Positions 4,823 to 60,208 of a stretch of 64,000 bases of DNA are shown here, piece by piece. Below the pieces are notes generated by a model. It searched no databases. It was not told the origin of the DNA and saw only the letters and a list, made by a program, of their open reading frames with translations. The stretch spans positions 46,197-110,196 of the forward strand of contig CAVUUY010000011.1 of NCBI GenBank assembly GCA_963744915.1, read 5' to 3'. Positions within the stretch are counted from its first letter, which is position 1. Every line of letters starts with the position of its first letter. The stretch comes from an uncultured Alphaproteobacteria bacterium (GTDB lineage: Bacteria; Pseudomonadota; Alphaproteobacteria; Rhizobiales; Aestuariivirgaceae). The position numbers and the translations under genes are program-made.

Positions 4823-6075
4823 CGCGGCGGCTTCCCGACGACTGCTTCCAGCATGGCCGCGACCGGCTGAGCCATGAGGCCGCAATCGCGCTGATCGCCG
4901 AGCGGCTCAGGCCGGTCGCCGAGCCGGAGGAGGTGGAGCTCGGCCAGGCCCATGGCCGGGTCATCGCCGCCGATATGTTGGCGCCGCGCGATGTGCCGCA
5001 ATTCACCAATTCGGCGGTCGACGGCTATGCGCTGGCGCATGCCTCGCTCGGCGCCGACGCGGGCCTCCATGCCGTCACGGCGCGGGCGGCGGCCGGTCAT
5101 CCGGCGAAAACGCGGGTCGGCCCGGGCGAGGCGGCGCGGATCTTCACTGGCGCGACGATGCCCGAAGGCACCGACACGGTCATCATGCAGGAGGATGTCA
5201 CGCTCGAGGCTGGCCGGATCCGGGTTTCCGGCACGGTCCGCCTCGGCGCCAATGTGCGCCACGCCGGGGAGGATCTCCGTGCCGGTCAGGTTGCGGTCAG
5301 GGCGGGAACCAGGCTACGGCCGCAGGAAATTGCGGCGATTGCCTCGACCGGGGCCGACCGGGTGCCATGCCACCGCCGGCTCAAGGTTGGCGTGCTGTCG
5401 ACCGGCGACGAGCTGGTGGAGCCGGGCCAGCCGCTGGCGCCCGGCCAGGTCTTCGATTCCAATCGCCACCTGCTTGCCGGGCTGCTCGCCGCGCAGGGCG
5501 TAGCGATGGTGGCGCTCGGCACCGCCGGCGACACGGCGGAGGCGCTGGAGGCGCGGCTGCGCCAGGCAGCGGCGGCGTGCGACGTCATCCTCACCACCGG
5601 TGGCGTCAGCCGCGGCGAGAGCGACCTCGTGGTCGAGACGATCCGTCGGCTCGGGTCGCTCTATGCCTGGCAGATCGCGGTCAAGCCGGGCCGGCCGCTG
5701 GCGATGGGCCAGATCGGCGATGCGGTGATCTTCGGCCTGCCGGGCAATCCGGTGGCGGTGTTCGTCACCTTCCTGCTCTATGCGGTGCCGATGCTGGCGC
5801 GGCTCCAGGGGGCGGCGGTCCGTGAGCCGCGGCGCTATCCCGTCAAGGCGGGGTTCGACTTTACCGGGCGAAAGCACGGCCGGCGGGAGTTCTGGCGCGG
5901 CCGGATCGTCGATGGCCCGGACGGCCCGCGGCTGATGAAGTTCGAACGCGACGGTTCCGGCCTGATTTCGGGCCTGGTCCAGGCCGAAGGGCTGATCGAT
6001 GTCCCGGAATCGACGGGCGACGTCCGTGCCGGCGATCTCCTTGGGTTCATTCCGTTCCGGGAATTCGGGCTCTAG
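4819..6075 (+). CDS. moeA: molybdopterin molybdotransferase MoeA
   Basis: MoeA domains are present (NSAVDGYA, TGGVSRGESD, GLPGNPVA). The GTG at 4819 overlaps the mobB TGA; an alternative TTG start lies at 4801. Confidence 0.85.
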   Translation: MTRRLPDDCFQHGRDRLSHEAAIALIAERLRPVAEPEEVELGQAHGRVIAADMLAPRDVPQFTNSAVDGYALAHASLGADAGLHAVTARAAAGHPAKTRVGPGEAARIFTGATMPEGTDTVIMQEDVTLEAGRIRVSGTVRLGANVRHAGEDLRAGQVAVRAGTRLRPQEIAAIASTGADRVPCHRRLKVGVLSTGDELVEPGQPLAPGQVFDSNRHLLAGLLAAQGVAMVALGTAGDTAEALEARLRQAAAACDVILTTGGVSRGESDLVVETIRRLGSLYAWQIAVKPGRPLAMGQIGDAVIFGLPGNPVAVFVTFLLYAVPMLARLQGAAVREPRRYPVKAGFDFTGRKHGRREFWRGRIVDGPDGPRLMKFERDGSGLISGLVQAEGLIDVPESTGDVRAGDLLGFIPFREFGL

Positions 6076-28265: not shown

Positions 28266-29194
28266 ACCGTCAGTCCATCGCCGCTATGCACCGGTTGATC
28301 GCTCCGCATATCCGGCGCACCCCCGTCATCGACATCCATCTCGATGGTCTGCAGCGGCCGGTTACGCTCAAGCTCGAATGCCTGCAGGTCACCGGCTCGT
28401 TCAAGGCCCGCGGCGCCTATGCCAACATGGTGGGCCTCGAGCCGCCGCCGGCCGGGGTGACGGCAGCATCCGGCGGCAATCACGGCATCGCCGTGGCACG
28501 GGCGGCGGCCACGCTCGGGGTCAAGGCACGGATCTTCGTTCCCGAGATCTCCTCGCCCGCCAAGGTGGCGCGGATCAGGCAGGAGGGCGCCGAGGTGACG
28601 ATCGTGGGCGCCCGGTATGCCGATTTACTCGCCGCCTCGGAGGCCTATGCGGCGGAAAGCGGGGCGTTGCCGATCCACGCCTATAATGCCGAGGCGACGC
28701 TGCTCGGCCAGGGCACCATCGCGGCGGAGCTGGAGGCCCAGGCCAGCGATCTCGACACCATCATGGTCGCGGTCGGCGGCGGCGGGCTGATCGGCGGCAT
28801 CGCGGCGTGGTATTCCGGGGCGCATCAGATCCTGGGTATCGAGCCCTCGGGGTGCAATACCCTGGCGGCGGCGCTGGAGGCGGGCGGCCCGGTTTTGGTC
28901 GAGACGCAGGGGATCGCCGCCGATTCGCTCGGCGCATCGCGGCTTGGCGATCTGTCCTATGCCATCATGGCCCAGACCGGTGCCCGCTCCGTGCTGGTCG
29001 AGGACCACGATATCAAATCGGCCCAGATGTGGCTGTGGGACAATCTCCGGCTTCTCACCGAGCCGGGAGGTGCAACGGCGCTCGCCCCCCTGCTGTCAGG
29101 CCGCTACCAGCCGCATCCCCACGAACGGATCGGGGTGGTGATCTGCGGCGCGAATGTGGATCCGGCAACATTTGCGCGAGCGGATGGCAAATAG
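28259..29194 (+). CDS. PLP-dependent threonine/serine dehydratase (serine-racemase-like fold-type II enzyme)
   Basis: The ATG at 28259 overlaps the pdxY end. It has LECLQVTGSFKARGA (PLP lysine), SGGNHG and AVGGGGLIGG. Confidence 0.8.
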   Translation: MLNRQSIAAMHRLIAPHIRRTPVIDIHLDGLQRPVTLKLECLQVTGSFKARGAYANMVGLEPPPAGVTAASGGNHGIAVARAAATLGVKARIFVPEISSPAKVARIRQEGAEVTIVGARYADLLAASEAYAAESGALPIHAYNAEATLLGQGTIAAELEAQASDLDTIMVAVGGGGLIGGIAAWYSGAHQILGIEPSGCNTLAAALEAGGPVLVETQGIAADSLGASRLGDLSYAIMAQTGARSVLVEDHDIKSAQMWLWDNLRLLTEPGGATALAPLLSGRYQPHPHERIGVVICGANVDPATFARADGK

Positions 29195-29311
29195 TGAGCG
29201 GTGAGTAGTGAGTAGTGAGTAGTGAGTAGTGAGTAGTGAAATAGTGAGTCGTTGCACTGAACTACGCCAATCGCTCATCGCTCTTTTCTACTCACTACTC
29301 ACTACTCACCC
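29193..29311. repeat. inverted heptamer arrays: (GTGAGTA)~7 ... (TACTCAC)3
   Basis: Five perfect GTGAGTA units at 29201-29235 have degenerate units on each side (29193-29250). A spacer of about 38 nt follows, then three perfect TACTCAC units (29289-29309), the exact reverse complement. The element fills the gap between the convergent stops at 29194 and 29315. Confidence 0.9.
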
Positions 29312-29314
29312 TTT

Positions 29315-30994
29315 TCAGAACAACCCCTCGATCTGGCCCTTCTTGTCGAGGCCGATGACTTCGGCCGAGGGGACCTTGGGCAGGCCCGGCATGGTCATGA
29401 CATCGCCGCAGATGGCGACGATGAACTCGGCCCCGGCGGACAGCCGGATCTCGCGGATCGGTACCACATGATGGCTCGGCGCTCCCTTGAGATTCGGATC
29501 GGTCGAGAAGGAATATTGCGTCTTGGCCATGCAGATGGGGAACTTGCCATAGCCTTGTGCCTCGAATTCGCGCAGCTGGTTCCTGACCGAGGTGTCGGCC
29601 ACGACATCGTCGGCGCGGTAGATTTCCGTGGCGATGGTCTTGATCTTTTCCCATAGCGGCAGGTCATCGCCATAAAGGGGCTTGAGCACGGGCTTGGAGC
29701 GCTCGGCCAAGGCGACGACATGGCGCGCCAGCGCCTCGGTGCCCTTGGAGCCCTCGGCCCAATGGGTGCAGCGGAACGCCTCGACGCCCTTTTCGGCGCA
29801 GAAGCTCCGGACGATTTCCGCTTCGGCCTCGGTATCGGTGATGAAGTTGTTGATGGCGACGGCGATCGGCAGATCGAACTTGGCCAGGTTCTCGAGATGG
29901 CGGCCGAGATTGACCAGCCCCTTCTTGAGGGCGGCGAGATTCTCGGTCTTGAGCTCCTCCTTGGACAGGCCGCCATGCATCTTCAATGCCCGGATGGTGG
30001 CCACCACCACGGCGGCGGCCGGAGCGAGGCCGGCCTTGCGGCATTTGATGTCGATGAACTTCTCCGCCCCGAGATCGGCGCCGAACCCTGCCTCGGTCAC
30101 AACATAATCGGCAAGCTTCAGGCCCGCCTTGGTGGCCATCACCGAATTGCAGCCATGGGCGATGTTGGCGAATGGCCCGCCATGAACGAAGGCGGGGTTG
30201 TTCTCGAGCGTCTGGACGAGGTTGGGCATCAGCGCGTCCTTGAGCAGGACGGTCATGGCGCCGGGCGCCTTCAGATCCTCGGCTCGGAGCGGCGTACGGT
30301 CGCGGCGGGCCGCGACGACAATCTGCGAGAGGCGCCGCTCGAGATCCGCGAGCGAGGTCGACAGGCAGAAAATGGCCATGATCTCCGAGGCGACGGTGAT
30401 GTCGAAGCCGGTCTCGCGCGGGTAGCCATTGGCAACGCCACCGAGCGAGGCGACGACCGCGCGAAGCGCCCGGTCGTTCATGTCGAGCACCCGCCGCCAG
30501 GCGACGCGCCGCGAATCGATTCCGAGCTCGTTGCCCCAGTAGATGTGATTGTCGATCATCGCCGACAGAAGGTTGTGGGCGGTGGTGATGGCGTGGAAGT
30601 CACCGGTGAAGTGGAGGTTGATGTCCTCCATCGGCACGATCTGCGCATAGCCGCCGCCGGCCGCGCCGCCCTTGACGCCGAAACAGGGCCCGAGCGAGGG
30701 TTCGCGCAGGCAGATGACCGCCTTCTTGCCGATGCGGTTGAGCCCATCGCCGAGGCCCACCGTGGTGGTGGTCTTGCCCTCGCCGGCCGGCGTCGGGGTG
30801 ATGGCGGTCACCAGGATCAGCTTGCCGTCCGGGCGGTCCTTCAGCGTCTCGAGAAAGTCGAGGCTGACCTTGGCCTTGGTATGACCATAAGGAATGAGGT
30901 GCTCGGAGCGGATCCCCAGGCGCTCGCCCACGTCCGCGATCGGCCGCATTTTGGCTGCACGGGCTATTTCAATATCGCTTTTGGGAGCCGACAT
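29315..30994 (-). CDS. fhs: formate--tetrahydrofolate ligase
   Basis: 559 aa with [39 protein letters not shown] and [12 protein letters not shown]. Confidence 0.95.
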
Positions 30995-31118: not shown

Positions 31119-31766
31119 TCAGCTTTTGCGGCCGGCGGCGAGCTGTTCGATGCGGCGCTGGACCGCCTTCAGCTCCTCCTTGAGGGCACGGATGTCCTCC
31201 TCGGCCGAAGCGGCGGCGGGTTCGGACTGGGCGCCGGCCGCCGGGGCTGCCGCAGGGGCGCCGTTGGTGCCGCTGCCGGCCGGCGGCACGACGAAGGGAT
31301 TGAACATCTGCACGGCCTGCTGGAACATCGCGACATTGCGCCGTGCCTGCTCCTCTATGGCGCGGAACGGCTCGCCGCCGAAGGACTCCATCATCTGCTG
31401 GCGGAACCGCTCCTGCTCGCGGGTCAGGGATTCCAGGGAGAATTCGAGATAGCTCGGGATGAAGGCCTGCATGCTGTCGCCGTAAAATCGGATCAGCTGG
31501 CGCAAAAAGCGGATGGGCAGCAGATTCTGACCCTTGTTCTCCTCGTCGAAGATGATCTGGGTCAGCACCGAGCGGGTGATGTCCTCGCCGGTTTTGGCGT
31601 CATAAACCGAGAAATCATTACCTTTCTTGACCATCTCTGAAAGGTCGTCGAGGGTCACATAGCTGCTCGTCGACGTGTTGTAGAGGCGGCGATTGGCGTA
31701 TTTCTTGATCACCACCGTGTTGGCGGCGGAATCGCTGTTAGAGGGGGCGGGTTCAGGCGTGCCCAA
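31119..31766 (-). CDS. phaR: polyhydroxyalkanoate synthesis repressor PhaR
   Basis: VIKKYANRRLYNTSTSSYVTLDDLSEMVKKG is the PhaR N-terminal signature. The probable TTG start at 31766 is preceded by GGAAGGA. The ORF-track start at 31928 adds 54 non-conserved residues. Confidence 0.8.
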   Translation of the reverse strand: MGTPEPAPSNSDSAANTVVIKKYANRRLYNTSTSSYVTLDDLSEMVKKGNDFSVYDAKTGEDITRSVLTQIIFDEENKGQNLLPIRFLRQLIRFYGDSMQAFIPSYLEFSLESLTREQERFRQQMMESFGGEPFRAIEEQARRNVAMFQQAVQMFNPFVVPPAGSGTNGAPAAAPAAGAQSEPAAASAEEDIRALKEELKAVQRRIEQLAAGRKS

Positions 31767-31939
31767 GGTGGAAAATTCCTTCCACAGTCCACGTTTTCTG
31801 CGAAATTGTTGCGCCCCGGTTCGCGCAATTGCAAGCGCAAAAGGACCCCATGCTTGACCAAGTCGGACCAAAGGAAGCGGGTTATTGAACTCCTGTCGCC
31901 CGCAGCCGATATTGGCGGCATCATCCAAGGAGGACGAAG
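31767..31939. promoter_or_regulatory. divergent phaR / phaAB control region with TTGCGC/GCGCAA inverted repeats
   Basis: TTGCGC (31809-31814), GCGCAA (31823-31828) and GCGCAA (31835-31840) surround a GCAATTGC palindrome. AGGAGG lies 6 nt upstream of the phaA ATG. The operator assignment is speculative. Confidence 0.25.
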
Positions 31940-33127
31940 ATGTCGGTTGCTGACAAATCGGTCGCTATCGTTGCCGCGGTGCGCACCCCCGTCGGTTCTT
32001 TCAACGGTGCGCTGTCGTCCTTGGCGGCATCGGCGCTCGGCACGGTGGCGCTGCGGGCGGCAATCGAACGGGCCAAGCTCGATCCGACGGAGGTCGAGGA
32101 AGTCATCCTCGGCCAGATCCTGACCGCCGGGGCCGGCCAGAACCCGGCCCGGCAGGCTTCGATCGGAGCCGGGATCCCGGTGGAGAGCCCGGCCTGGGGG
32201 GTGAACCAGCTCTGCGGCTCTGGGTTGCGGGCGGTTGCGCTCGGCCTGCAGCAGATCACCAGCGGCGATGCCAAGATCGTGGCGGCGGGCGGCCAGGAGT
32301 TGATGAGCCAGGCGCCGCACTGCGCGCATCTGCGCGACGGCGTCAAGATGGGCGACTACAAGCTCATCGACACGATGATCAAGGACGGGCTGTGGGACGC
32401 CTTCAACGGCTATCATATGGGCAACACTGCCGAGAATGTCGCCAAGCAGTGGCAGATCACCCGCGAGGAGCAGGACAGTTTCGCTGTCAGGTCGCAGAAC
32501 AAGGCCGAGGCGGCGCAGGTAGGCGGCAAGTTCAAGGACGAGATCGTCCCGGTCACCATAGAGACGCGCAAGGGCAAATTGGTGGTGAGCGACGATGAAT
32601 ACATCAAGAAGGGGGTGACGCTCGATTCGGTCACGAAGCTAAGGCCGGCTTTCGACAAGGACGGTTCGGTGACCGCGGCCAATGCCTCGGGGATCAACGA
32701 CGGCGCGGCGGTGGTGATCCTGATGCCGGAGACGGAGGCGTCGCGTCGCGGCCTCAAGCCGCTGGCCCGGATCGTCTCCTGGGCCCATGCCGGGGTCGAT
32801 CCGGCGATCATGGGCACCGGTCCGATCCCGGCGTCGCGGCTGGCGCTGAAGCGGGCCGGCTGGAAGGCCGAGGATCTCGACCTCATCGAGGCCAACGAGG
32901 CTTTCGCCGCCCAGGCCTGCGCCGTCAATCGCGAGCTCGGCTTCGATACCGATATCGTCAACGTCAATGGCGGAGCGATCGCCATCGGCCATCCGATCGG
33001 TGCATCGGGCGGCCGGGTGCTGGTGACGCTGCTCCACGAGATGGCCAGGCGCAAGGCTCGTAAGGGCCTGGCGACGCTGTGCATCGGCGGCGGCATGGGC
33101 ATTGCCATGTGCGTCGAGCGCCACTGA
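31940..33127 (+). CDS. phaA: acetyl-CoA acetyltransferase (beta-ketothiolase)
   Basis: 395 aa with VNQLCGSGLRAV (active-site Cys), NVNGGAIAIGHPIGASG and CIGGGMG. Confidence 0.9.
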   Translation: MSVADKSVAIVAAVRTPVGSFNGALSSLAASALGTVALRAAIERAKLDPTEVEEVILGQILTAGAGQNPARQASIGAGIPVESPAWGVNQLCGSGLRAVALGLQQITSGDAKIVAAGGQELMSQAPHCAHLRDGVKMGDYKLIDTMIKDGLWDAFNGYHMGNTAENVAKQWQITREEQDSFAVRSQNKAEAAQVGGKFKDEIVPVTIETRKGKLVVSDDEYIKKGVTLDSVTKLRPAFDKDGSVTAANASGINDGAAVVILMPETEASRRGLKPLARIVSWAHAGVDPAIMGTGPIPASRLALKRAGWKAEDLDLIEANEAFAAQACAVNRELGFDTDIVNVNGGAIAIGHPIGASGGRVLVTLLHEMARRKARKGLATLCIGGGMGIAMCVERH

Positions 33128-33143
33128 GCGGAAGGAGGCTGGC

Positions 33144-33869
33144 ATGGCCCGGCTTGCGATTGTTACGGGGGGGACCCGCGGTATCGGTGCGGCAATTTCC
33201 AGGGCGCTCAAGGCCGAAGGCCACAAGGTGATCGCCAATTATGCCGGCAATGACGAGGCGGCGCGGCGGTTCGGCCAGGAGACCGGGATCGCCACCATGA
33301 AATGGGACGTCTCGAGCTACGAAGCCTGCGACGGCCAGCTCGCGGCGATCGCCAAGGAGCACGGGCCGGTCGAGATCCTGGTCAACAATGCCGGGATCAC
33401 CCGCGATGCCATGTTCCACAAGATGACGCCGCAGCAATGGAACGAGGTCATCAACACCAATCTCACCGCGCTGTTCAACATGACCCGGCCGGTGTGGGAG
33501 GGGATGCGGGCGCAGGGCTTTGGCCGGATCATCTGCATCTCCTCGATCAACGGCCAGAAGGGCCAGATGGGCCAGGTCAACTATTCGGCGGCCAAGGCCG
33601 GCGACGTCGGCTTCGTCAAGGCGCTGGCCCAGGAGGGGGCCGCCAAGGGCATCACCGTCAATGCCATTGCACCGGGCTATATCGGCACCGAGATGGTTCG
33701 CGCGATCGCCCCCGAGGTGCTGGAGAAACGGATCCTGCCGTTGATCCCGGTCGGGCGGCTCGGCGAGCCCGAGGAGGTGGCGCGCTGCGTGGTGTTCCTC
33801 GCCTCCGATGCCGCCGGGTTCATCACCGGTTCGACCCTGACGGTGAATGGCGGGCAGCATATGGCGTGA
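33144..33869 (+). CDS. phaB: acetoacetyl-CoA reductase
   Basis: ATG at 33144 gives MARLAIVTGGTRGIGAAIS. The SDR catalytic motif is YSAAKAG. The 241-aa product follows phaA. Confidence 0.9.
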   Translation: MARLAIVTGGTRGIGAAISRALKAEGHKVIANYAGNDEAARRFGQETGIATMKWDVSSYEACDGQLAAIAKEHGPVEILVNNAGITRDAMFHKMTPQQWNEVINTNLTALFNMTRPVWEGMRAQGFGRIICISSINGQKGQMGQVNYSAAKAGDVGFVKALAQEGAAKGITVNAIAPGYIGTEMVRAIAPEVLEKRILPLIPVGRLGEPEEVARCVVFLASDAAGFITGSTLTVNGGQHMA

Positions 33870-33882
33870 TGCTCCCTACTTC

Positions 33883-35106
33883 CTACTCATTGCGGAACCC
33901 CTCCATCGCGAACGCGACGCATTCCGAGCTTGCCGTTTCGCTGGCGTGTTTTTCGCCATGCTGCCGGCTGAGGGCTTCGAAAACCCAGTCAGCCGGACGG
34001 CCAAGGATTCGTTCCTGGATCGTTACCTTGGGGGGCGATTCCGCGTTTACCTCGTAATAGACATCGGAAAACACCATCAGGATTTCTGCGATCTTGCGTG
34101 TTCTTTCAATGCCTGGATGGCTGTCCAAAATTGGATCAACGCTCGATCGGTCCGACTGATGCTGGAGCGTCGCAGCGATTTCGCGTATTGCTCGGACGTC
34201 CTGAGGATGGACTTTTGCTAGTTTCAGACTGTCAAAGAAGGCGTGGCGAATCCCTCGCTTGCCATGCTTATCGTAACCTTCCAGCAAATTGCCTATCAGC
34301 TCGAACAATGGGATCTGATTCTTCCCCGCCAGCCGTTCGACAAGGGCATTGCTTGCGGGCTCCAAATCCATCGAGGCGGCCAGCATTTCTTCGTAGGGAA
34401 GCATCCTGTTCAAATAATTGAACTGACTGACGTCCTTCCCTTGGCTTGCAGCCAATTCCTCAATTCTCCTGCGCACTCTGATGCGCTGGCGAATGTAGTC
34501 GTCACTGCCCCTGATCCAGGATCTTAGAGCTCGGCTGAGATAACCCTTTTGCCTCAGGCGACGATTGGTCTCCCGAAACATGCAGTCGAGCAAGGTCTTG
34601 GAGTTCGCTGCCTCGTCCGACGACTTGAAAACGACATCATACACGAATGCGATATTGTCTCTCAGACGCTCAAGCTGGCCGGCATGCAGGAGGCTCATCG
34701 CATCAACCAAGGCTTGGATCTGGTTCTGTTCAGATGCAATCTGTTGATAAAAGGTCTTCAACGCAGCACGGCAGCACTCGGGATCGAGTTGTCGTTGCCG
34801 GCTGAGCGCGCGGACGCACTTTTTGGCAGCGATCATGCGCTCGATTTCTTCTGCCATCATCCGCCTGGGGATGACTTCGTCCTTGAGCTCGCGGATCCTG
34901 ACGCTCGCCATGTTGATGTCATGTCTGTTGCGGAAGCCAAGCCATTCCTGCCTGAGGCCCTGAACCGCCATTTTCATCCAATGTCGCGAGGGCGCGTCTT
35001 TGCCCTGGGCGTCCCAATCCAATGGCTGCCACAGGCGTGTGATAAGAGGCATTGATCGTGTCGCTTTCTTTGAGCGCATCGAAACATAAACCAAGCGACC
35101 GGGCAC
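33883..35106 (-). CDS. hypothetical protein, no recognisable domain (low-GC orphan)
   Basis: An uninterrupted 1224-nt ORF in a segment of about 45-53% G+C, where long ORFs do not arise by chance. The product is helical and Arg/Glu-rich, with no TM helix or signal peptide. The start is uncertain: GTG 35106, ATG 35079 or ATG 35052. Confidence 0.6.
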   Translation of the reverse strand: MPGRLVYVSMRSKKATRSMPLITRLWQPLDWDAQGKDAPSRHWMKMAVQGLRQEWLGFRNRHDINMASVRIRELKDEVIPRRMMAEEIERMIAAKKCVRALSRQRQLDPECCRAALKTFYQQIASEQNQIQALVDAMSLLHAGQLERLRDNIAFVYDVVFKSSDEAANSKTLLDCMFRETNRRLRQKGYLSRALRSWIRGSDDYIRQRIRVRRRIEELAASQGKDVSQFNYLNRMLPYEEMLAASMDLEPASNALVERLAGKNQIPLFELIGNLLEGYDKHGKRGIRHAFFDSLKLAKVHPQDVRAIREIAATLQHQSDRSSVDPILDSHPGIERTRKIAEILMVFSDVYYEVNAESPPKVTIQERILGRPADWVFEALSRQHGEKHASETASSECVAFAMEGFRNE

Positions 35107-35316
35107 GATGTGCTATTTGGCACACCTGTCATTGCCCTGCGACAAACTGGTGCAGTCCATTGATCCTCCACCCACGTTCAACCGCAGATCCTGAATACGT
35201 GCCGGAGCTGGCGCTGTTCGACGACGTGGCCAGCACGAGCTTCGGGAGCCGGGCTACGCAATCGAAGACGATTCTGATCAGCAGCCCTTTTTATATGACG
35301 GTTCGCGATTATGAGA

Positions 35317-35344
35317 CTATTGCCTATTGCCTATTGCCTGTCGC
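35317..35344. repeat. heptamer array (CTATTGC)3 plus one degenerate unit
   Basis: ctattgc ctattgc ctattgc ctgtcgc lies 10 nt downstream of the gloB stop, at the right edge of the low-GC segment. Confidence 0.8.
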
Positions 35345-35353
35345 TCCGCCGCC

Positions 35354-36124
35354 TCAAAAGGCATCCTTGCGGCGGCGCAGCGCGGCAAACACCTCGGCGT
35401 CGGATTTATCGGCAAGGCCGAGCCGGGCCCGGATCGCGCTGTCCTCGGGCCTGAGAAACGGATTGGCCTGCCGTTCGCCGGCGATGGTGACGGGAAGCGT
35501 CGGGCGGCCGGCCTCGACCTCGGCGGCAGCCTCCGCGGCGCGGGCCTTGAGGTTGGGATTGTCGGGATCGACCGACAGCGCGAAACGGGCGTTGGCCAGC
35601 GTGTATTCATGGCCGCAATAGACGCGGGTGTCGGGTGGGAGATCGCGCAGCCGGGCAAGCGAGCGCCACATCTCGTCCATGCTCCCCTCGATCACGCGGC
35701 CGCAGCCGAGCGAGAACAGGGTGTCGCCGGCGAATACCAGCTGGTCCTGTGCAAAGTGCCAGGCGATATGACCCCTGGTGTGCCCCGGCGTATCGATGAT
35801 TTCCGCGCGGTGGCCGGCAAAGTCGTAGGTCTGGCCCGGCTCGACGGTCTCGTCGACCGCAGGGATGCGGCGGGCATCGGCCCGGTTGGCGACCACCTTG
35901 GCGCCATGGCGGGCCTTGAGCGCCGGGATGGCGGCGACATGGTCGTCATGATGATGGGTGACGAGAATATGGGTTAATTTCCACCCGGTCTCCCGCAGCG
36001 CCTGCTCGATCGGGCCGTCCTCCGGCGCATCGATGGCGGCGCAGGCCGGGGAGCCCCGGTCGCGCAGCAAAACGCCAAAATTGTCCTTGCGGCAGAGGAA
36101 TTGATGTATGTCGAGCGCTGGCAT
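35354..36124 (-). CDS. gloB: hydroxyacylglutathione hydrolase (glyoxalase II)
   Basis: 256 aa with the metallo-beta-lactamase motif VTHHHDDHV, plus TPGHTRGHI and CGHEYT. Confidence 0.9.
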   Translation of the reverse strand: MPALDIHQFLCRKDNFGVLLRDRGSPACAAIDAPEDGPIEQALRETGWKLTHILVTHHHDDHVAAIPALKARHGAKVVANRADARRIPAVDETVEPGQTYDFAGHRAEIIDTPGHTRGHIAWHFAQDQLVFAGDTLFSLGCGRVIEGSMDEMWRSLARLRDLPPDTRVYCGHEYTLANARFALSVDPDNPNLKARAAEAAAEVEAGRPTLPVTIAGERQANPFLRPEDSAIRARLGLADKSDAEVFAALRRRKDAF

Positions 36125-36196: not shown

Positions 36197-36944
36197 ATGT
36201 TGGATGTAGTCGATCTCCGGGAATTCTACGCAAGCCCCCTTGGGCAGATGACGCGGCGCATGCTGTCGCATCGCATCCGCTCGCGCTTCCGCGCCGGTCA
36301 GGGCGCGCGGGTGCTCGGGGTCGGCTATGCCATTCCCTATCTCGAGCCATGGCGGGCCGAAGCCGAGCGGGTGTTCGCCTTCATGCCGGCGCGGCAGGGG
36401 GTGGTGCACTGGCCGCAATCCGGCCTCAATGACGCAGCCCTGGTCGAGGAGGCCGACCTGCCGCTTCCCGATGCCTCGGTCGACCTGGCGCTGGTGGTGC
36501 ACGGGCTGGAACTGACCGACCAGCTGCCGGACCTGCTGCGCGAGCTGTGGCGGGTGCTGGCGCCGCAGGGCCGCGCCCTTCTGGTGGTGCCCAACCGGCG
36601 CGGCATGTGGGCGCGGTTCGAACTCGACGCCGTTCGGCCATGGCCGGCCGTTCTCGCGCGGCCAGCTCACCGACCTGCTGCGCGACGCCGCGTTCTCGCC
36701 CACCGGGTGGGCCTATGCGCTGTTTGCGCCGCCGATCGGCCGCAGCTTCCTGATCCGCTCGGCACCGGCTCTGGAACGGTTCGGCATGTGGATCTCGCCC
36801 GGCTTTGCCGGCCTGATCGTGGTCGAGGCGGTGAAGCAGGTCTATGCCATCTCGCGCGGCAAGCGGGCCAAGCGGCTGATGCCGGTGATCAAGCCGCGGC
36901 TCATTCCGGTGCCGTCGCTTCGGCGCAGCCGTCAGCAACACTGA
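36197..36944 (+). pseudogene. class I SAM-dependent methyltransferase, interrupted by a 1-nt insertion near 36621-36622 (probably an assembly artefact)
   Basis: The N-terminal 141 aa are in frame 1 (VLGVGYAIPYL, LVVHGLE, LAPQGRALLVVPNRRGMWARF). The conserved continuation TPFGHGRPFSRGQLTDLLRDAAFSPTGWAYALFAPPIG...RRSRQQH* is in the +1 frame and ends at 36944. Total length is 748 nt (1 mod 3). Confidence 0.75.
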
Positions 36945-36953
36945 GGGACCGCC

Positions 36954-37754
36954 ATGGCCGAGCCCCGTCCGCCGCTGCGCACGCTCGAAGACGCCCGCCA
37001 GGAAATCGACGACATCGATCTGCGGATCCTCAGCCTTCTCGAGCAGCGCTTCAATGCCAGCCGGCTGATCCGGCACATCAAGGCCCGGGAGCCCGGCAAC
37101 GGCACCGTCTCGCCGGTGCGGCCGGCGCGTGAATCGGCCATCCTGCGCCGGCTGCTCGAGCGGGCGAGCGGATCGGTGCCGCCGGCGGTGGTGGTGCAGA
37201 TCTGGCGCCGCATCATCTCGGCCTCGACCTTGCTGCAGGCGCCCGCCGTCGTGCGCTGCCCGCAGGCGCTGTTCGCCGATCCGGAGATGCGCTCGCAGAT
37301 GCGCGACCATTTCGGGACCATCCCGGTTACCGCCGTGCCGGACGAGGAATTGGCCGTCCGGGCGGTGCGCGACCGGCCGGCGGAGGTCGCCGTGGTGCCG
37401 ATCGGCGGCTATTGGGTGCAGCCGTTTCTCGACAGGCTGGGCGGCGATGCCGCGGTGATCGGGGTGCTGCCTTCGCTGTCCGACGGCAGCCCGCCGACCG
37501 CGGCGGTGATCGGCCATGCGCCGGCCGAGCGGACCGGGGCGGACGAGACGCTGGTCGCCACCTCCGGCCGGCTGCCGCGCGATTTCGTGCCGGCGCCGCT
37601 GTGGGACGTTCAGAGCGAGGACGGGCACCGGCTGACCAGCCTGCCCGGGTTCCTGTCCGAGTCCGAGCATCCGCTGATCGGCCTCCGGCGCAGCAACGAC
37701 CTGCTTGCGTTGACGGTCGTCGGCCGCTATCCGAGCCCGCTCGAGGTGAGGTGA
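36954..37754 (+). CDS. chorismate mutase (AroQ-type N-terminal domain) family protein
   Basis: [33 protein letters not shown] is the AroQ helix-1 pattern. The 266-aa gene lies upstream of hisC-tyrC, as in many Rhizobiales. Confidence 0.7.
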
Positions 37755-39792: not shown

Positions 39793-40338
39793 ATGGCCAA
39801 CTCCTGGGTCTTCGCTTATGGCTCGCTGATGTGGCGGCCGGACATCCCCTATGCCGAGCGGCGTCAGGCGCTGCTGCATGGCCATCACCGGCGGCTTTGC
39901 ATCTACTCCTATGTGCATCGCGGCAGCCCGGAGAAGCCCGGCCTGGTGATGGGGCTCGATCGCGGCGGGGCCTGCCGCGGCATCGCCTATCGCATCGAAG
40001 CGGCGCAGTGGCCGGCCACCCTCGCCTATCTGCGAGCCCGCGAGCAGGTCACGGCCGTCTATGTCGAAAGCGAGCGTCCGGTGCGGCTGCTCGACGGCGA
40101 CCGGCGCGTGGTGACGGCGCTGGTCTACGAGGCCGACCGGAGTCATCCCCAATATGCCGGCCGCCTCGGCTTCGAGGACCAGCTGCGCCATGTGCTGCAG
40201 GGAGTGGGGGTGTCCGGCCGCTGCGTCGACTATGTGAGCCAAACGGTCGCGCATCTCGAAGAGATGAACATCCGCGACGCCGCGCTCGAAGCGCTGGCGG
40301 TGGCAATAGGCAATAGGCAAGTAGGCAATAGGCAATAG
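39793..40338 (+). CDS. gamma-glutamylcyclotransferase (ChaC family)
   Basis: WVFAYGSLMWRP and GLVMGLDRGGACRGIAYRI match the ChaC family. The last 11 codons (AIGNRQVGNRQ*) are encoded by the heptamer array. Confidence 0.8.
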   Translation: MANSWVFAYGSLMWRPDIPYAERRQALLHGHHRRLCIYSYVHRGSPEKPGLVMGLDRGGACRGIAYRIEAAQWPATLAYLRAREQVTAVYVESERPVRLLDGDRRVVTALVYEADRSHPQYAGRLGFEDQLRHVLQGVGVSGRCVDYVSQTVAHLEEMNIRDAALEALAVAIGNRQVGNRQ

Positions 40339-40411
40339 GCAAAAGACTGCGCTGCTCCTGCTCACTACTCACTACTCACTACTTGCCTATTGCCTATTTG
40401 CCTACTTGCCC
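40302..40411. repeat. composite nested inverted heptamer arrays: (GGCAATA)~6 - spacer - (CTCACTA)3 - (TTGCCTA)~4
   Basis: 40302-40343 reads ggcaata ggcaata ggcaagt aggcaat aggcaat aggcaaa. 40361-40381 reads ctcacta x3. 40383-40411 reads ttgccta ttgccta tttgccta cttgcc, the reverse complement of the left arm. The element sits between the convergent stops at 40338 and 40415. Confidence 0.9.
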
Positions 40412-40414
40412 CTT

Positions 40415-41311
40415 TCAACTCTTCCGCTCGACGATGAAGCGGGCCGCTTCGGCCAACAGCTTCGCGCGCTCGCCGAAGCGGTCGAGGGCGGCGACTGCTT
40501 CCCCGGTCAGGGCGGCTGCACGGGCCTTGGCGCCGGCAAGCCCGAAATGATCGATGAAGGTCGCCTTGCCGGCCGAGCGGTCCTTCTGGGTCGCCTTGCC
40601 GAGCGCGTCGGGGGTCGATTCGACGTCGAGGACATCATCGGCGATCTGGAAGGCGAGGCCGATCTTGTCGGCGAAGGTGGCGAGCGCGGCGCGGTCGGCG
40701 GCGCCGGCCCTGGCCAGGATGGCGCCGGCTTCGAGCGAGTAGCGGAACAGCGCTCCGGTCTTCATCCCCTGCAGCAGCACGATGTGATCGAGATCGAAGT
40801 CGCTCTGCTGCTCGGCCAGGAGATCGAGCATCTGGCCGCCGACCATGCCGGAATGACCCGCAGCGCCGGCGAGGTTGGCGATGAGGTCGACACGGATGGC
40901 GGCGTCGGGATGGGTCAGCGGATCGGCAAGGATGTCGAAGGCGAGGGTGAGCAGCCCGTCCCCGGCGAGAATGGCAGTGGCCTCGTCGAATGCCTTGTGG
41001 CAGGTCGGCTTGCCGCGCCGCAGGTCGTCATCGTCCATGGCGGGCAGATCGTCATGGACCAGCGAGTAGCAATGGACGCATTCGAGCGCGACCCCGGTGC
41101 GCAGTGCCCCCTCGGCGGGGGCATCCAGAATGCGGGCGCTCTCGGTCACGAAGAACGGCCTGATGCGCTTGCCCTGGCCAATCGCGGCATAGCGCATCGC
41201 CTCGACGATGCGCGGCGCCCGGGCATTGTCGAGCGGCAGCAGCTGGTCGAGCAGCCGGTCGACCTCGGCGGCGGTGCGCTTCAGGGCAGTTTCAAGATTT
41301 ATGCGATTCAC
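40415..41311 (-). CDS. ispA: polyprenyl (farnesyl/geranylgeranyl) diphosphate synthase
   Basis: Both Asp-rich motifs are present (LVHDDLPAMDDDDLRRGKPT and FQIADDVLD). The probable GTG start at 41311 is preceded by GGGAAAAGA. The ORF-track start is 41386. Confidence 0.85.
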   Translation of the reverse strand: MNRINLETALKRTAAEVDRLLDQLLPLDNARAPRIVEAMRYAAIGQGKRIRPFFVTESARILDAPAEGALRTGVALECVHCYSLVHDDLPAMDDDDLRRGKPTCHKAFDEATAILAGDGLLTLAFDILADPLTHPDAAIRVDLIANLAGAAGHSGMVGGQMLDLLAEQQSDFDLDHIVLLQGMKTGALFRYSLEAGAILARAGAADRAALATFADKIGLAFQIADDVLDVESTPDALGKATQKDRSAGKATFIDHFGLAGAKARAAALTGEAVAALDRFGERAKLLAEAARFIVERKS

Positions 41312-48131: not shown

Positions 48132-48169
48132 CCTATTGCCTATTGCCCATTGCCTATTGCCTGTTGCCC
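48132..48169. repeat. degenerate heptamer array (CCYRTTG)5
   Basis: cctattg cctattg cccattg cctattg cctgttg ccc starts 21 nt after the qor-like stop and about 170 nt upstream of ffh. Confidence 0.85.
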
Positions 48170-48337
48170 GCACATGGCCTAGAAGGCCGGCACATTCCGG
48201 AAGACGCTTGAAGCCTCTTCTTGCCCCGCTCACATGGTGCTTGCGCACGCACCGGGAGGCGCGGGGTCCGACACCCGCCAGCGATGTTCGCCCGCGGGTG
48301 CAATGGCGTTTGAGGCGTCCGAAAGAGACGAGGACAG

Positions 48338-49918
48338 ATGTTCGAGACACTGCAGGAACGGCTTTCCGGAATTTTCGACCGGCTCACCGGGCGCGGATCG
48401 CTGTCGGAAGCCGATGTCGATGCGGCAATGCGGGAGGTGCGGCGGGCCCTGATCGAGGCCGATGTCGCGCTCGAGGTGGTGCGTTCCTTCACCGAGCAGG
48501 TGCGCCAGCGCGCGATCGGCCAGGAGGTCGTCCGGTCGATCAAGCCGGGCCAGATGGTGATCAAGATCGTGCACGACGCCCTCGTCGACACGCTTGGACG
48601 CGATGCCGTGCCGCTCGATCTCAAGGCGGCGGCGCCGGTGCCGGTGCTGATGGTCGGCCTGCAGGGCTCGGGCAAGACCACGACCACCGCGAAGATCGCC
48701 AAGCGGCTCAAGGAGCGTGAGCGCAAGCGGGTGTTGATGGCCTCCCTCGACACCGCGCGGCCGGCCGCCCAGGAGCAGCTAGCGATCCTCGGACGCCAGA
48801 TCGGGGTGGACACCCTGGCGATCGTCAAGGGCGAGAAGGCGCTGGACATCACCCGGCGGGCCCTGGACGAGGCGCGGCGCGGCGGCTTCGACGTGCTGAT
48901 GCTCGATACCGCCGGGCGGCAGCATATCGATGAGACGCTGATGAACGAGGTGGTTGCGGTCCGCGACATCGCAAAGCCGCACGAGACGCTGCTCGTCGCC
49001 AATTCGCTGACCGGCCAGGACGCCGTCAATCTCGCCCGCAGCTTCGATCAGCGGGTCGGGGTCAGCGGCATCGTGCTCACCCGCGTCGATGGCGATGGCC
49101 GCGGCGGTGCGGCGCTGGCGATGCGGGCGGTGACGGGCAAGCCGATCAAGCTCATCGGCACCGGCGAGCGGCTGGACGGGCTCGAGGACTTCCACCCCGA
49201 GCGGATCGCCGGGCGGATTCTCGGCATGGGCGACGTGGTGAGCCTGGTCGAAAAGGCGGCGCTCGAGATCGACGCCGACAAGGCACGAAAGATCGCCGCC
49301 CGCATGAAGAAGGGCGCCTTCGATCTCGACGACCTGGCGGAGCAGCTGAAGCAGCTGCAGAAGCTTGGCGGCATGTCTGGCGTCATGGGCCTGCTGCCCG
49401 GCCTCGGCAAGGCCAGGAAGCAGCTCGACAATATCGATCTCGACAAGCTCGTGCTGGGGCGGCAGCTGGCGATCATCGGCTCGATGACCATGTTCGAGCG
49501 GCACAATCCCAAGGTGCTCAACGCCTCGCGCAAGAAGCGTGTTGCCAAGGGTTCCGGCACCGAGGTGCAGGAGATCAACCGTCTGCTCAAGATGCATCTG
49601 CAGATGGGCGACATGATGAAGCGGATGGGCAAGCAGCGGGGCGGCCTTTTCGGCGGCCTGTTCGGCGGCGGCCAGCCGAGCGTCGACATGGCCGAGCTCG
49701 AGCGGCTGCAGGGCGAGCTCAAGAACCTCGATCCCGCGGCGCTGCCGCCGGAGCTGAGAAACCTGCCGCCGCTCGATGGCGGGTTGCCGAAAACCCTCCC
49801 GGGGCTCGGTGCCGCGGGTGGCGGGCTGCTGCCCGGGCTCGGCGGCCGCCGAGCCCCGCAAGGGCCGGGGCTCGGTGGTCCCAAGGGCCTTCCCGGCTTC
49901 CCCTTCAAGAAGAAATGA
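48338..49918 (+). CDS. ffh: signal recognition particle protein Ffh
   Basis: 526 aa with MFETLQERLSGIFDRL, GLQGSGKTTT, DTAGR and a Met-rich M domain. It has a Gly/Pro/Leu-rich C-terminal tail. Confidence 0.95.
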   Translation: MFETLQERLSGIFDRLTGRGSLSEADVDAAMREVRRALIEADVALEVVRSFTEQVRQRAIGQEVVRSIKPGQMVIKIVHDALVDTLGRDAVPLDLKAAAPVPVLMVGLQGSGKTTTTAKIAKRLKERERKRVLMASLDTARPAAQEQLAILGRQIGVDTLAIVKGEKALDITRRALDEARRGGFDVLMLDTAGRQHIDETLMNEVVAVRDIAKPHETLLVANSLTGQDAVNLARSFDQRVGVSGIVLTRVDGDGRGGAALAMRAVTGKPIKLIGTGERLDGLEDFHPERIAGRILGMGDVVSLVEKAALEIDADKARKIAARMKKGAFDLDDLAEQLKQLQKLGGMSGVMGLLPGLGKARKQLDNIDLDKLVLGRQLAIIGSMTMFERHNPKVLNASRKKRVAKGSGTEVQEINRLLKMHLQMGDMMKRMGKQRGGLFGGLFGGGQPSVDMAELERLQGELKNLDPAALPPELRNLPPLDGGLPKTLPGLGAAGGGLLPGLGGRRAPQGPGLGGPKGLPGFPFKKK

Positions 49919-55031: not shown

Positions 55032-55063
55032 CCTGTTGCCCATTGCCCTGTTGCCCATTGCCT
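55032..55063. repeat. degenerate heptamer array (CCYRTTG)4
   Basis: cctgttg cccattg ccctgttg cccattg cct starts 20 nt after the priA stop and about 160 nt upstream of atpH. Confidence 0.8.
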
Positions 55064-60180: not shown

Positions 60181-60208
60181 CCACCCACCACTCACCACTC
60201 ACCACTTT
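60181..60208. repeat. heptamer array (CCACTCA-type, 4 units)
   Basis: ccaccca ccactca ccactca ccacttt starts 4 nt after the atpC stop and overlaps the stop and last codons of pxpC on the minus strand. Confidence 0.7.

Follow-up and report, generated by a model that had tools for sequence, protein, structure and literature searches.

Introduction

According to a large survey, most species-specific orphan genes match the G+C content of their hosts, and low G+C marks an externally derived minority (PMC11293555; Vakirlis and Kupczok, 2024). Such external-origin ORFans show no similarity outside their species, a G+C content below that of the host, non-optimal codon usage and weak selection, and they occupy variable spots in the genome; orphans are usually short, and most are rare ‘cloud’ genes (PMC11293555). 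Small genomic islets at convergent gene junctions form a second point of comparison, in which one gene and its 5′ region create a sharp compositional discontinuity between intact flanking core genes, at a site that varies between lineages. A third is provided by short tandem heptamers in intergenic DNA, such as the STRR sequences of cyanobacteria and the TAACTGA repeats of Beggiatoaceae, which are abundant and variable in copy number (PMC4679880).

Here we analysed a window of 64 kb (the whole stretch of DNA under study, within which all positions are given) from an uncultured Hyphomicrobiales-like species. Between the convergent genes phaB and gloB, the segment 33870-35345 carries a single orphan gene that shares all of the above features of external-origin ORFans. 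It differs from them in its length (389 aa) and in being fixed in all sampled strains, and it shows no similarity even to viral sequences, so its external origin cannot be attributed to a donor. The segment likewise has the layout of a small genomic islet; unlike such islets, it shows no sign of an integrase, a tRNA target, insertion-sequence ends or a target-site duplication, and its only boundary features are the genome’s own heptamer arrays. These arrays resemble the STRR and TAACTGA repeats, but lie immediately 3′ of stop codons rather than upstream of start codons, are frequently arranged as inverted pairs which form long hairpins, are built from different units (GGCAATA, TGAGTAG), and belong to the host genome rather than to the orphan gene. 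The features of the locus are as follows.

33144..33869, plus strand: phaB, acetoacetyl-CoA reductase of the adh_short family (Pfam domains on identical public proteins); GC3 0.88
33875-33888, no strand: heptamer units CCTACTT CCTACTC, 5 nt after the phaB stop codon, overlapping the last two codons and the stop codon of the orphan gene
33883..35052, minus strand: orphan protein-coding gene, likely product 389 aa, ATG at 35052, stop codon TAG at 33883-33885
35053..35106, minus strand: possible N-terminal extension of 18 codons, back to a GTG at 35106, which would make the maximal ORF 407 aa
35107..35316, minus strand: non-coding 5′ region of the segment, ~56% G+C, between the gloB-side heptamer array and the ORF
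35317-35339, no strand: heptamer array (CTATTGC)x3.3, found by TRF, GGCAATA when read in the sense of gloB, 14 nt past the stop codon of that gene
35354..36124, minus strand: gloB, hydroxyacylglutathione hydrolase (Lactamase_B and HAGH_C domains, Pfam), same-strand upstream neighbour of the orphan gene

Results

Composition and coding status of the segment

The segment contains 54.7% G+C (about 55%) compared with 66.6% over the whole window, about 11 points below the host, which is the compositional deviation by which a horizontally acquired genomic islet is recognized. Measured in 600-nt windows, the deepest trough of the 64 kb lies at 34001-35000 (52.5-54.7%), and the next lowest value is 59.7%. 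The initial annotation, made from the sequence alone, had described this drop from three 60-nt hand counts, all of which proved exact on recounting (43/60 at 33601-33660, 27/60 at 34081-34140 and 32/60 at 34441-34500). The GC3 of the orphan gene is 0.66, against 0.76-0.91 in host genes, and the foreign composition extends over the ~300 nt 5′ of its ORF. phaB, the convergent left neighbour, has the composition of the host.

The uninterrupted minus-strand ORF of 1224 nt first described at 33883..35106 is present, with a GTG start and a length of 407 aa. This is the maximal ORF, as the listing from which it was taken opens each frame at the earliest start codon that follows a stop; the likely product is the shorter protein of 389 aa, since all public gene calls start at ATG 35052 (at least 20 contigs). 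The stop codon, TAG, is the reverse complement of CTA at 33883-33885 and is separated from the phaB stop codon (33867-33869) by 13 nt, as originally noted. No terminator-like site was found in this gap, where the initial annotation had likewise seen no terminator hairpin; elsewhere the scan returned three such sites against 1.8 expected, which is the chance level.

The probability of a frame of 407 codons without a stop at the composition of the segment is ~3e-8, and the G+C content by codon position (GC1 0.59, GC2 0.40, GC3 0.66, with G enriched at position 1) follows the pattern typical of coding DNA. The orphan is therefore a genuine coding sequence and not a chance ORF, with putative expression. 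Any promoter of its own should lie within 35107..35316, and the promoter scan 5′ of the ORF, this region included, gave no sigma-70-like site; no clear Shine-Dalgarno sequence precedes any of the three candidate starts when the sequence is read by eye. Because the gene runs in the direction of gloB, read-through transcription from gloB is possible. No canonical terminator was found over the 250-300 nt that separate the two genes, and transcription of the orphan is probable from this same-strand arrangement. Rfam gave no match in the segment (at E ≤ 1 for 35107..35316). The sole Rfam family match in the whole window is the ffh sRNA at 48257.

Searches for homologues, families and structure

The protein has no detectable homologue outside its species in the collections searched. 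Searches against Pfam, NCBIfam, PADLOC, PHROG and PDB sequences returned either no match or weak sub-threshold matches, the best at 16.5 bits. A word-index search of 5.8 billion protein clusters recovered only the orphan’s own cluster, and phmmer, run exhaustively on 1.84 billion representative proteins, recovered a fragment of the orphan itself and one spurious match, P0017 (E = 5e-9), which we rejected as a homologue on account of its alignment to a 38-aa motif repeated in a 5165-aa protein. Searching the phage and plasmid collections by tblastn gave nothing at E ≤ 1, and a pattern scan of viral contigs gave no match. The missing family assignment reported at the outset held in all libraries, and the sequence searches then proposed found the orphan alone.

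The protein is predicted to be all-helical, basic (pI 9.0) and soluble, with no transmembrane segment; the helical character and the lack of a transmembrane segment agree with the initial annotation. That annotation had also seen no P-loop, and we found no Walker A motif, other catalytic motif or internal repeat in the protein. No alignment can be built for the orphan, and the AlphaFold2 model is a single-sequence prediction; its pLDDT of 43 is a low value that is expected of any protein folded without an alignment. Foldseek comparison of this model with the PDB, the structural check originally suggested, returned only designed helical repeats at E > 0.5, which are meaningless and provide no usable match.

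Several weak candidates were rejected. A match to IS110-family transposases, which carry a DEDD catalytic core, scored 9.3 bits (E = 0.55) against an NCBIfam cut-off of 140 bits, and was regarded as noise, as was a 13-bit match to TSST-1. A HEPN or Abi-type protein would be recognized by a HEPN fold with a conserved Rx4-6H motif or by an Abi_2/HEPN family match; neither Pfam nor PADLOC gave a family match (Abi_2 included), the fold model is the one with pLDDT 43, and a single Rx5H motif near the C-terminus compares with the ~3 that would arise at random in a protein with 42 Arg and 10 His. A type II toxin-antitoxin module was likewise rejected in the lack of an adjacent small partner gene: the 250-300 nt upstream hold only tiny ORFs, none of them a credible partner or antitoxin, and downstream there are just 13 nt.

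GajA of the Gabija system combines an ABC-type ATPase domain bearing Walker A with a Toprim nuclease domain. The likeness of the orphan to GajA consists of a 13-bit local match in PADLOC (PDLC00071, E = 0.008), in which residues 113-202 align with the C-terminal part of the profile; we rejected it as noise. The match covers 90 residues of a helical, low-information stretch, whereas the protein has neither an ATPase domain nor Walker A, no Toprim match in Pfam or PDB and no gajB partner beside it, and the search of PDB sequences, among which Gabija structures should be represented, was empty at E ≤ 10.

This borderline match is nonetheless one of the observations that would fit a stand-alone weapon under fluctuating selection, be it an anti-phage defence encoded by one gene, a toxin-like effector or a protein of abortive infection. 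So would the orphan status of the gene, its foreign composition and its place as a one-gene islet at a junction that varies. Against such a role stand the missing catalytic motifs, family matches and partner ORF, and an Rx5H count below chance; moreover, no defence genes were found nearby, the locus is a housekeeping one in all strains, and no relatives occur in any phage, plasmid or defence-island context. We consider this explanation unlikely.

Distribution of the gene and its insertion site

The orphan gene lies at the same site in every recovered contig of the species. An origin ancestral to the order, which would have made the gene ordinary, had been raised at the outset; none of the 80 related gloB loci in the species-representative genome collection carries it, which counts against such an origin. 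A comparison of phaB-gloB synteny, also proposed then, was informative in that the two genes are directly adjacent, 17-69 bp apart, in three distant relatives (L057, L073 and L090), but it did not define the insertion ends, as the contig of the closest relative, L011, stops 164 bp past gloB. Nucleotide homology with L011 ends at 35326, inside the heptamer array, and the gene next to gloB in L011 is not phaB. The 55-bp tail of the L011 contig has no match in the window, and a metagenome scan with L011 gloB found nothing closer than 57% identity. The initial annotation had called the gene recently acquired. Acquisition agrees with its absence from the 80 related loci; its recency calls for a qualification, given that the segment is fixed in all sampled strains and its acquisition therefore predates their divergence. 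No empty-site allele was seen among the sampled haplotypes.

A mobility signature, another mark of an acquired islet, was not found. The repeat scan showed neither IS-like or MITE-like terminal repeats at the segment nor flanking inverted or direct repeats beyond the genome-wide heptamers, and the flanking genes are phaB and gloB. This lack of a signature is one argument for a native origin of the gene, either de novo from local non-coding DNA or by divergence beyond recognition of a former gloB-downstream gene. In many relatives gloB and phaB are indeed separated by one to three ordinary genes (cupin, EamA, YhhN-like or HAD), and the survey of species-specific orphans argues that those matching host G+C, the majority, may be native (PMC11293555). 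Here, however, G+C lies about 11 points under the host and GC3 far under that of every neighbour, and in the same survey low G+C marks the externally derived minority (PMC11293555). A native origin is further opposed by the tblastn comparison, which detected no residual similarity to the genes that fill the gloB-phaB gap elsewhere, and by the foreign composition of the 300 nt upstream of the ORF, while de novo emergence of a stop-free frame of 389 codons in AT-richer DNA would be very unlikely. We regard this origin as highly improbable.

Heptamers are present at both edges, as the initial annotation had observed. The units at 33875-33888 mark the left limit of the segment, and the array at 35317-35339 the right limit of lineage-specific DNA. 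The left-edge units match other arrays of the window (CTACTCA x3 at 29288 and CTACTTGC at 40379), and heptamer arrays are found just 3′ of stop codons in at least six other places. On folding, the left-edge units are unstructured, and the right-edge array, which here has no inverted partner arm of the kind that other arrays have, forms no structure of its own. The gloB stop codon itself is covered by a G+C-rich hairpin at 35342-35382 (inverted repeat I2; fold z-score -3.3). Strains L091, L092 and L096 carry two copies of the gloB-side unit where three stand here, and L011 has a homologous array at the same position 3′ of gloB, followed by (GCCTACT)x9, with which it forms a hairpin. Since arrays occur across the window and in L011 and vary in copy number among strains, the gloB array is older than the insertion and not peculiar to it. 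The heptamers belong to a class of arrays that follow the 3′ ends of genes throughout the genome, and a functional tie between them and the orphan gene, once suggested, was not borne out. A single inverted-array hairpin split in two, with one half at either edge, was also considered and rejected, as the left units are wrongly oriented for the missing arm.

Variation within the species

Segregating sites in the orphan gene show a non-synonymous to synonymous ratio of 16:7, compared with 33:48 in the neighbouring genes (Fisher p = 0.018). Against strain L091, its pN/pS is 0.70, compared with 0-0.13 in five of the six flanking genes; in phaR, the remaining one, the ratio is undefined for want of synonymous differences. 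At the level of polymorphism the pN/pS of the orphan is ~0.64, which is below 1. Four independent knock-out alleles were found: a +1 frameshift at ~34595 in three assemblies with different SNP backgrounds, R174* in two assemblies, Q246* and W356*. Nonsense substitutions make up 3 of 29, where 1.1 would be expected under neutrality. Several variant calls come from 2-5x coverage or long-read assemblies, where any single SNP may be an error; both the frameshift and R174* were seen in more than one independent assembly. The orphan gene is thus under relaxed constraint within the species. There may also be some selection for its retention, since ~70% of the sampled haplotypes keep the full 389-codon frame and none has an empty site.

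Raised pN/pS and recurrent loss of function could also be expected of a weapon, with the former reflecting diversifying selection and the knock-out alleles its cost, and loss-of-function polymorphism is typical of costly defence or toxin genes as well. We think it improbable that the variation arose in this way. The defence or toxin role on which the initial annotation had speculated gained nothing in its favour beyond the 13-bit PADLOC match, with no partner ORF or catalytic motif, and is further weakened by the relaxed constraint and the four independent knock-out alleles.

The same variation could be taken as that of a non-functional frozen relic never expressed in this host, such as a piece left over from a larger foreign gene or element. 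Near-neutral evolution, nonsense alleles at or above the neutral expectation, the low pLDDT, and the failure to find a promoter-like site, a clear ribosome-binding site or a terminator are all consistent with a relic. However, coding periodicity and the intact long frame show that this was a translated gene at least until recently, its place downstream of gloB makes transcription probable, and the pLDDT carries the expectation noted above for any protein modelled without an alignment. A relic of this kind therefore seems doubtful to us.

Discussion

The picture of a stand-alone gene of unassigned family, in DNA of foreign composition and amid housekeeping genes, was supported throughout. We favour, as reasonably probable, a horizontally acquired gene from an unsampled donor of lower G+C content that is now dispensable and decaying. 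The DNA from ~33870 to 35326 is lineage-specific and would most likely have arrived by horizontal transfer from such a donor, presumably a phage or other mobile element as the usual source. Its point of entry may have been the convergent gloB/phaB junction, within or next to a heptamer-array element that was already there, and it would then have become fixed in this uncultured species before the sampled strains diverged. At present the gene appears to be dispensable, with much weaker constraint than its neighbours, and to be undergoing inactivation by independent nonsense and frameshift mutations; for these reasons it is most aptly described as a stranded cargo gene that is turning into a pseudogene. 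As no mobility gene, terminal repeat or donor sequence was found, it is from composition and distribution that we infer the horizontal origin and the type of donor.

A more far-reaching proposal is that the orphan founds an unsampled family of single-gene conflict systems directed against phages or mobile elements, in which cost would explain the four knock-outs and the array hairpins would be preferred landing sites for cargo. We hold this to be very unlikely.

In conclusion, a gene without a relative among roughly 15 billion public proteins has been caught between fixation and decay, making it a clean and unusually well-documented bacterial orphan. The case reveals no new mechanism. It would carry greater weight if the protein were active in defence or toxicity, or if foreign DNA generally entered this lineage at heptamer-array hairpins. 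As it stands, the stranded cargo gene is a useful data point for the debates on the origin of species-specific genes and on their lifetime.

Results and discussion

We recounted composition across the low-GC segment between phaB and gloB, which contains a minus-strand orphan gene, and the hand counts of the initial annotation (43/60, 27/60 and 32/60) were exact. The GC drop is real, at 54.7% G+C in the flagged interval versus 66.6% in the whole window; positions 34001-35000 form the GC minimum of the 64 kb (0.525-0.547 in 600-nt windows; next lowest 0.597). The 407-aa ORF, the 13-nt gap between its stop and that of phaB, and the heptamers at both edges were likewise present as described.

Features of the phaB-gloB interval
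33867-33869, plus strand: stop codon of phaB, left neighbour of the orphan
33875-33888: two CCTACTY units, the second containing the orphan stop
33883-33885: orphan stop codon, TAG (reverse complement of CTA)
33883-35106, minus strand: orphan ORF, uninterrupted, 407 aa from a GTG start (sequence and ORF table)
35317-35339: (CTATTGC)x3.3 heptamer array on the gloB side
35354-36124, minus strand: gloB, right neighbour of the orphan

Given the local base composition, stops should fall about every 24 codons, so a 407-codon open frame would arise by chance with a probability of about 3e-8. GC1/GC2/GC3 of the orphan are 0.59/0.40/0.66, with an excess of G in first and of A in second codon positions, and the frame has real coding composition. 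Its GC3 is far below the 0.76-0.91 of neighbouring genes, which marks its codon usage as foreign. All public gene calls of the locus start at ATG 35052, giving 389 aa, and GTG 35106 is simply the first possible start; sequence inspection revealed no clear ribosome-binding site ahead of any candidate start. The protein is basic (pI 9.0), hydrophilic (GRAVY -0.51), lacks a hydrophobic segment (top 19-residue hydropathy 0.64) and is predicted to be all-helical.

The initial annotation could assign this protein to no family, which our searches bear out: Pfam, NCBIfam, PADLOC, PHROGs, the PDB and phmmer gave no usable match. Pfam returned nothing at E<=1, PHROGs a single unannotated family (E=0.017) and the PDB sequence search only noise. 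The sole NCBIfam match, IS110 (9 bits; cut-off 140), and the sole PADLOC match, GajA (13 bits across 90 helical residues), were rejected. Across 5.8 billion protein clusters, a word-indexed search found one cluster, the orphan itself at 99% identity. Exhaustive phmmer against 1.84 billion representatives recovered a fragment of the orphan and one other protein, which we do not regard as homologous, the match being to a 38-aa motif repeated many times within a 5165-aa protein. There was no tblastn match at E<=1 in 50,697 phage and 72,556 plasmid records, and none in an IMG/VR pattern scan. The single-sequence AlphaFold2 model is unreliable (pLDDT 43), and Foldseek with it retrieved designed helical repeats only (E>0.5). 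The protein contains no Walker A, HUH, PD-(D/E)xK or HExxH motif and no internal repeats, and its single Rx5H is below the approximately three expected by chance. The protein family itself is new.

In every recovered contig of the species, gloB and phaB are separated by the same or a near-identical orphan; the contigs include some from one JGI metagenome, from several Logan assemblies and from ENA assemblies, both long- and short-read, of many samples. An empty-site allele was not seen, since exact look-ups of the species' gloB and phaB proteins gave orphan-bearing contigs only. A gloB-based scan of relatives, with one genome per GTDB species, yielded 80 loci, and tblastn detected the orphan in none of them. 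The closest is L011, a contig from a MAG labelled Pseudomonadota, with a gloB protein 83% identical and 85% nucleotide identity to the window across 4.9 kb; the homology covers hisC, chorismate mutase, a methyltransferase and gloB, and ends at 35326, within the heptamer array. L011 stops 164 bp past gloB, and its final 55 bp are neither phaB nor orphan. In the remaining relatives gloB identity is at most 61%, and a metagenome scan for closer kin of L011 gave none above 57% identity. In three distant relatives (L057, L073 and L090), gloB and phaB converge as immediate neighbours, 17-69 bp apart; in 11 others they are separated by 0.7-3.2 kb of ordinary host-GC genes (cupin-like, EamA transporter, YhhN-like, HAD hydrolase and NYN-domain protein). 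These differing intervals indicate that the junction is evolutionarily variable. The orphan is thus unique to the window's species, and the directly adjacent state exists in the order.

In L011, positions 5045-5100 beyond the heptamer hairpin hold a gene next to gloB that is not phaB; its reverse-strand reading ends in RQIIDEYLAGSRTPGCHLRQ, with the stop within the array. Synteny thus breaks at the 3' flank of gloB even among sister lineages.

A native origin of the orphan, de novo or by hyper-divergence, is in our view very improbable. In a gut-microbiome survey, most species-specific orphans matched host GC, and low GC marked a minority of external, virus-like origin (PMC11293555). In composition the present gene agrees with that minority, although a viral relative was not found.

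The initial annotation also raised a functional tie between the orphan and the heptamer repeats. This is unsupported: such arrays are not peculiar to the insertion, as they occur at six or more other gene 3' ends in the window, and also 3' of gloB in L011.

Heptamer arrays (Tandem Repeats Finder)
29192-29249 and 29288-29309: arrays
35317-35339: array
40302-40342, 40361-40383 and 40379-40410: arrays
48132-48168: array
55032-55062: array
60181-60206: array

Allowing two mismatches at most, we counted 16 occurrences of GGCARTAGGCARTA, where 0.38 would be expected. Each array lies no more than a few tens of nt 3' of a stop codon, the majority between convergent genes. The units (GGCAATA/CTATTGC, TAGTGAG/CTCACTA and CTACTCA) belong to a genome-wide family also present in L011 (4940-5047). 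The composite arrays at 29185-29315 and 40295-40415 and that of L011 are inverted pairs forming long hairpins (z near -5.5). At the very same position 3' of gloB, L011 has four GGCAnTn units, with (GCCTACT)x9 after them forming the partner arm; the window's gloB-side array has neither partner arm nor structure, and the two phaB-side units were rejected as its partner on account of their orientation. On our reading, the heptamer array was already part of the gloB 3' end when the foreign DNA came in, and this DNA now stands in place of the distal arm. We found no IS- or MITE-type inverted or direct repeats bounding the segment.

The gloB array has three copies in the window and two in strain contigs L091, L092 and L096. 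The spacing from FTHFS to the next gene (29192-29309) differs by up to 17 bp among strains (compared with L002-L006, L091, L092 and L096). With copy number and spacing variable within one species, the arrays behave as hypervariable VNTR loci, and in this lineage they may represent terminator-like or REP-like elements. Intergenic heptamer arrays are known as a class from cyanobacteria, Beggiatoaceae and others (PMC4679880), from which those described here differ in their gene 3'-end position and inverted-pair architecture; we came across no account of arrays of exactly this kind. An ffh sRNA (Rfam RF01793, 50.6 bits; 48257-48308, plus strand) follows closely on a (CCTATTG)x5 array and lies immediately upstream of an ffh-like gene (48314-49918).

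No sigma-70-like promoter was detected within the 250-300 nt ahead of the orphan ORF, no small partner ORF was found, and Rfam gave no family in the segment even at E<=1. The scan's three terminator-like sites are at chance level, and the 13-nt gap has none, as initially annotated. A G+C-rich hairpin (35342-35382, z -3.3) spans the gloB stop codon and is not followed by a T-run; because the orphan lies directly downstream on the same strand, read-through from gloB is plausible. That the gene is a relic never expressed in this host, as the missing promoter might suggest, we consider unlikely. The hairpin is a 16-bp inverted repeat (88% complementary, 9-nt loop) and may be a non-canonical 3'-end structure ahead of the heptamer array. 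Beside gloB, the methyltransferase (36197-37132) is one 248-aa product in strain contigs L004 and L007, both lacking one A at 36622, and appears as split or otherwise irregular ORFs (189 aa and 52 aa) in the window and other strains; frameshift polymorphism or homopolymer error is possible.

Substitutions between the window and strain contig L091
Orphan: synonymous 4; non-synonymous 10; pN/pS 0.70
phaA, phaB, gloB, chorismate mutase and hisC: synonymous 21 in total; non-synonymous 4 in total; pN/pS 0-0.13 each
phaR: synonymous 0; non-synonymous 2; pN/pS undefined

Non-synonymous to synonymous segregating sites number 16:7 in the orphan versus 33:48 in six flanking genes (Fisher p=0.018; unique sites pooled across 16 other haplotypes, which are not independent samples). 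The orphan also carries four independent disrupting alleles. Several of the assemblies behind these counts and alleles have just 2-5x coverage, and the long-read contigs are error-prone (L093, one of these, was left out).

Disrupting alleles of the orphan
~34595, one-base insertion: +1 frameshift; L092, L096 and L097 (three short-read assemblies whose linked SNPs differ)
34534/34533, CC>TT: R174*; L094 and L095
34317, C>T: Q246*; L187
33985, G>A: W356*; L195

Nonsense changes make up 3 of 29 substitutions, against 1.1 expected if mutations were unfiltered, and hence stop codons are not being removed by selection. Repeated loss could also be seen in a defence or toxin gene that is costly and subject to fluctuating selection; this reading has little probability, as nothing speaks for it past what any foreign orphan offers. 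Synonymous diversity of the orphan is close to that of its neighbours, which indicates that the segment was already there when the sampled strains diverged. In strain contig L003, a SNP-dense recombinant tract (~31334-33755) covers phaR, phaA and phaB and ends just short of the orphan; this 2.4-kb block holds ~45 SNPs, whereas L003 matches the window exactly in the orphan and in gloB. The tract resembles DNA imported from a diverged lineage by homologous recombination, and is compatible with, though not proof of, a donor without the orphan segment.

Conclusion

Of the initial interpretation, an acquired, stand-alone, family-less gene stands; a tie to the heptamers does not, and of a defence or toxin role there was no sign. 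The orphan is an ORFan restricted to its species and sits on a small islet of foreign DNA. It was probably acquired horizontally as a single gene from an unsampled lower-GC donor and fixed at a variable convergent-gene junction, where it would now be dispensable and decaying. The locus represents a tidy example of orphan-gene turnover rather than a new mechanism.
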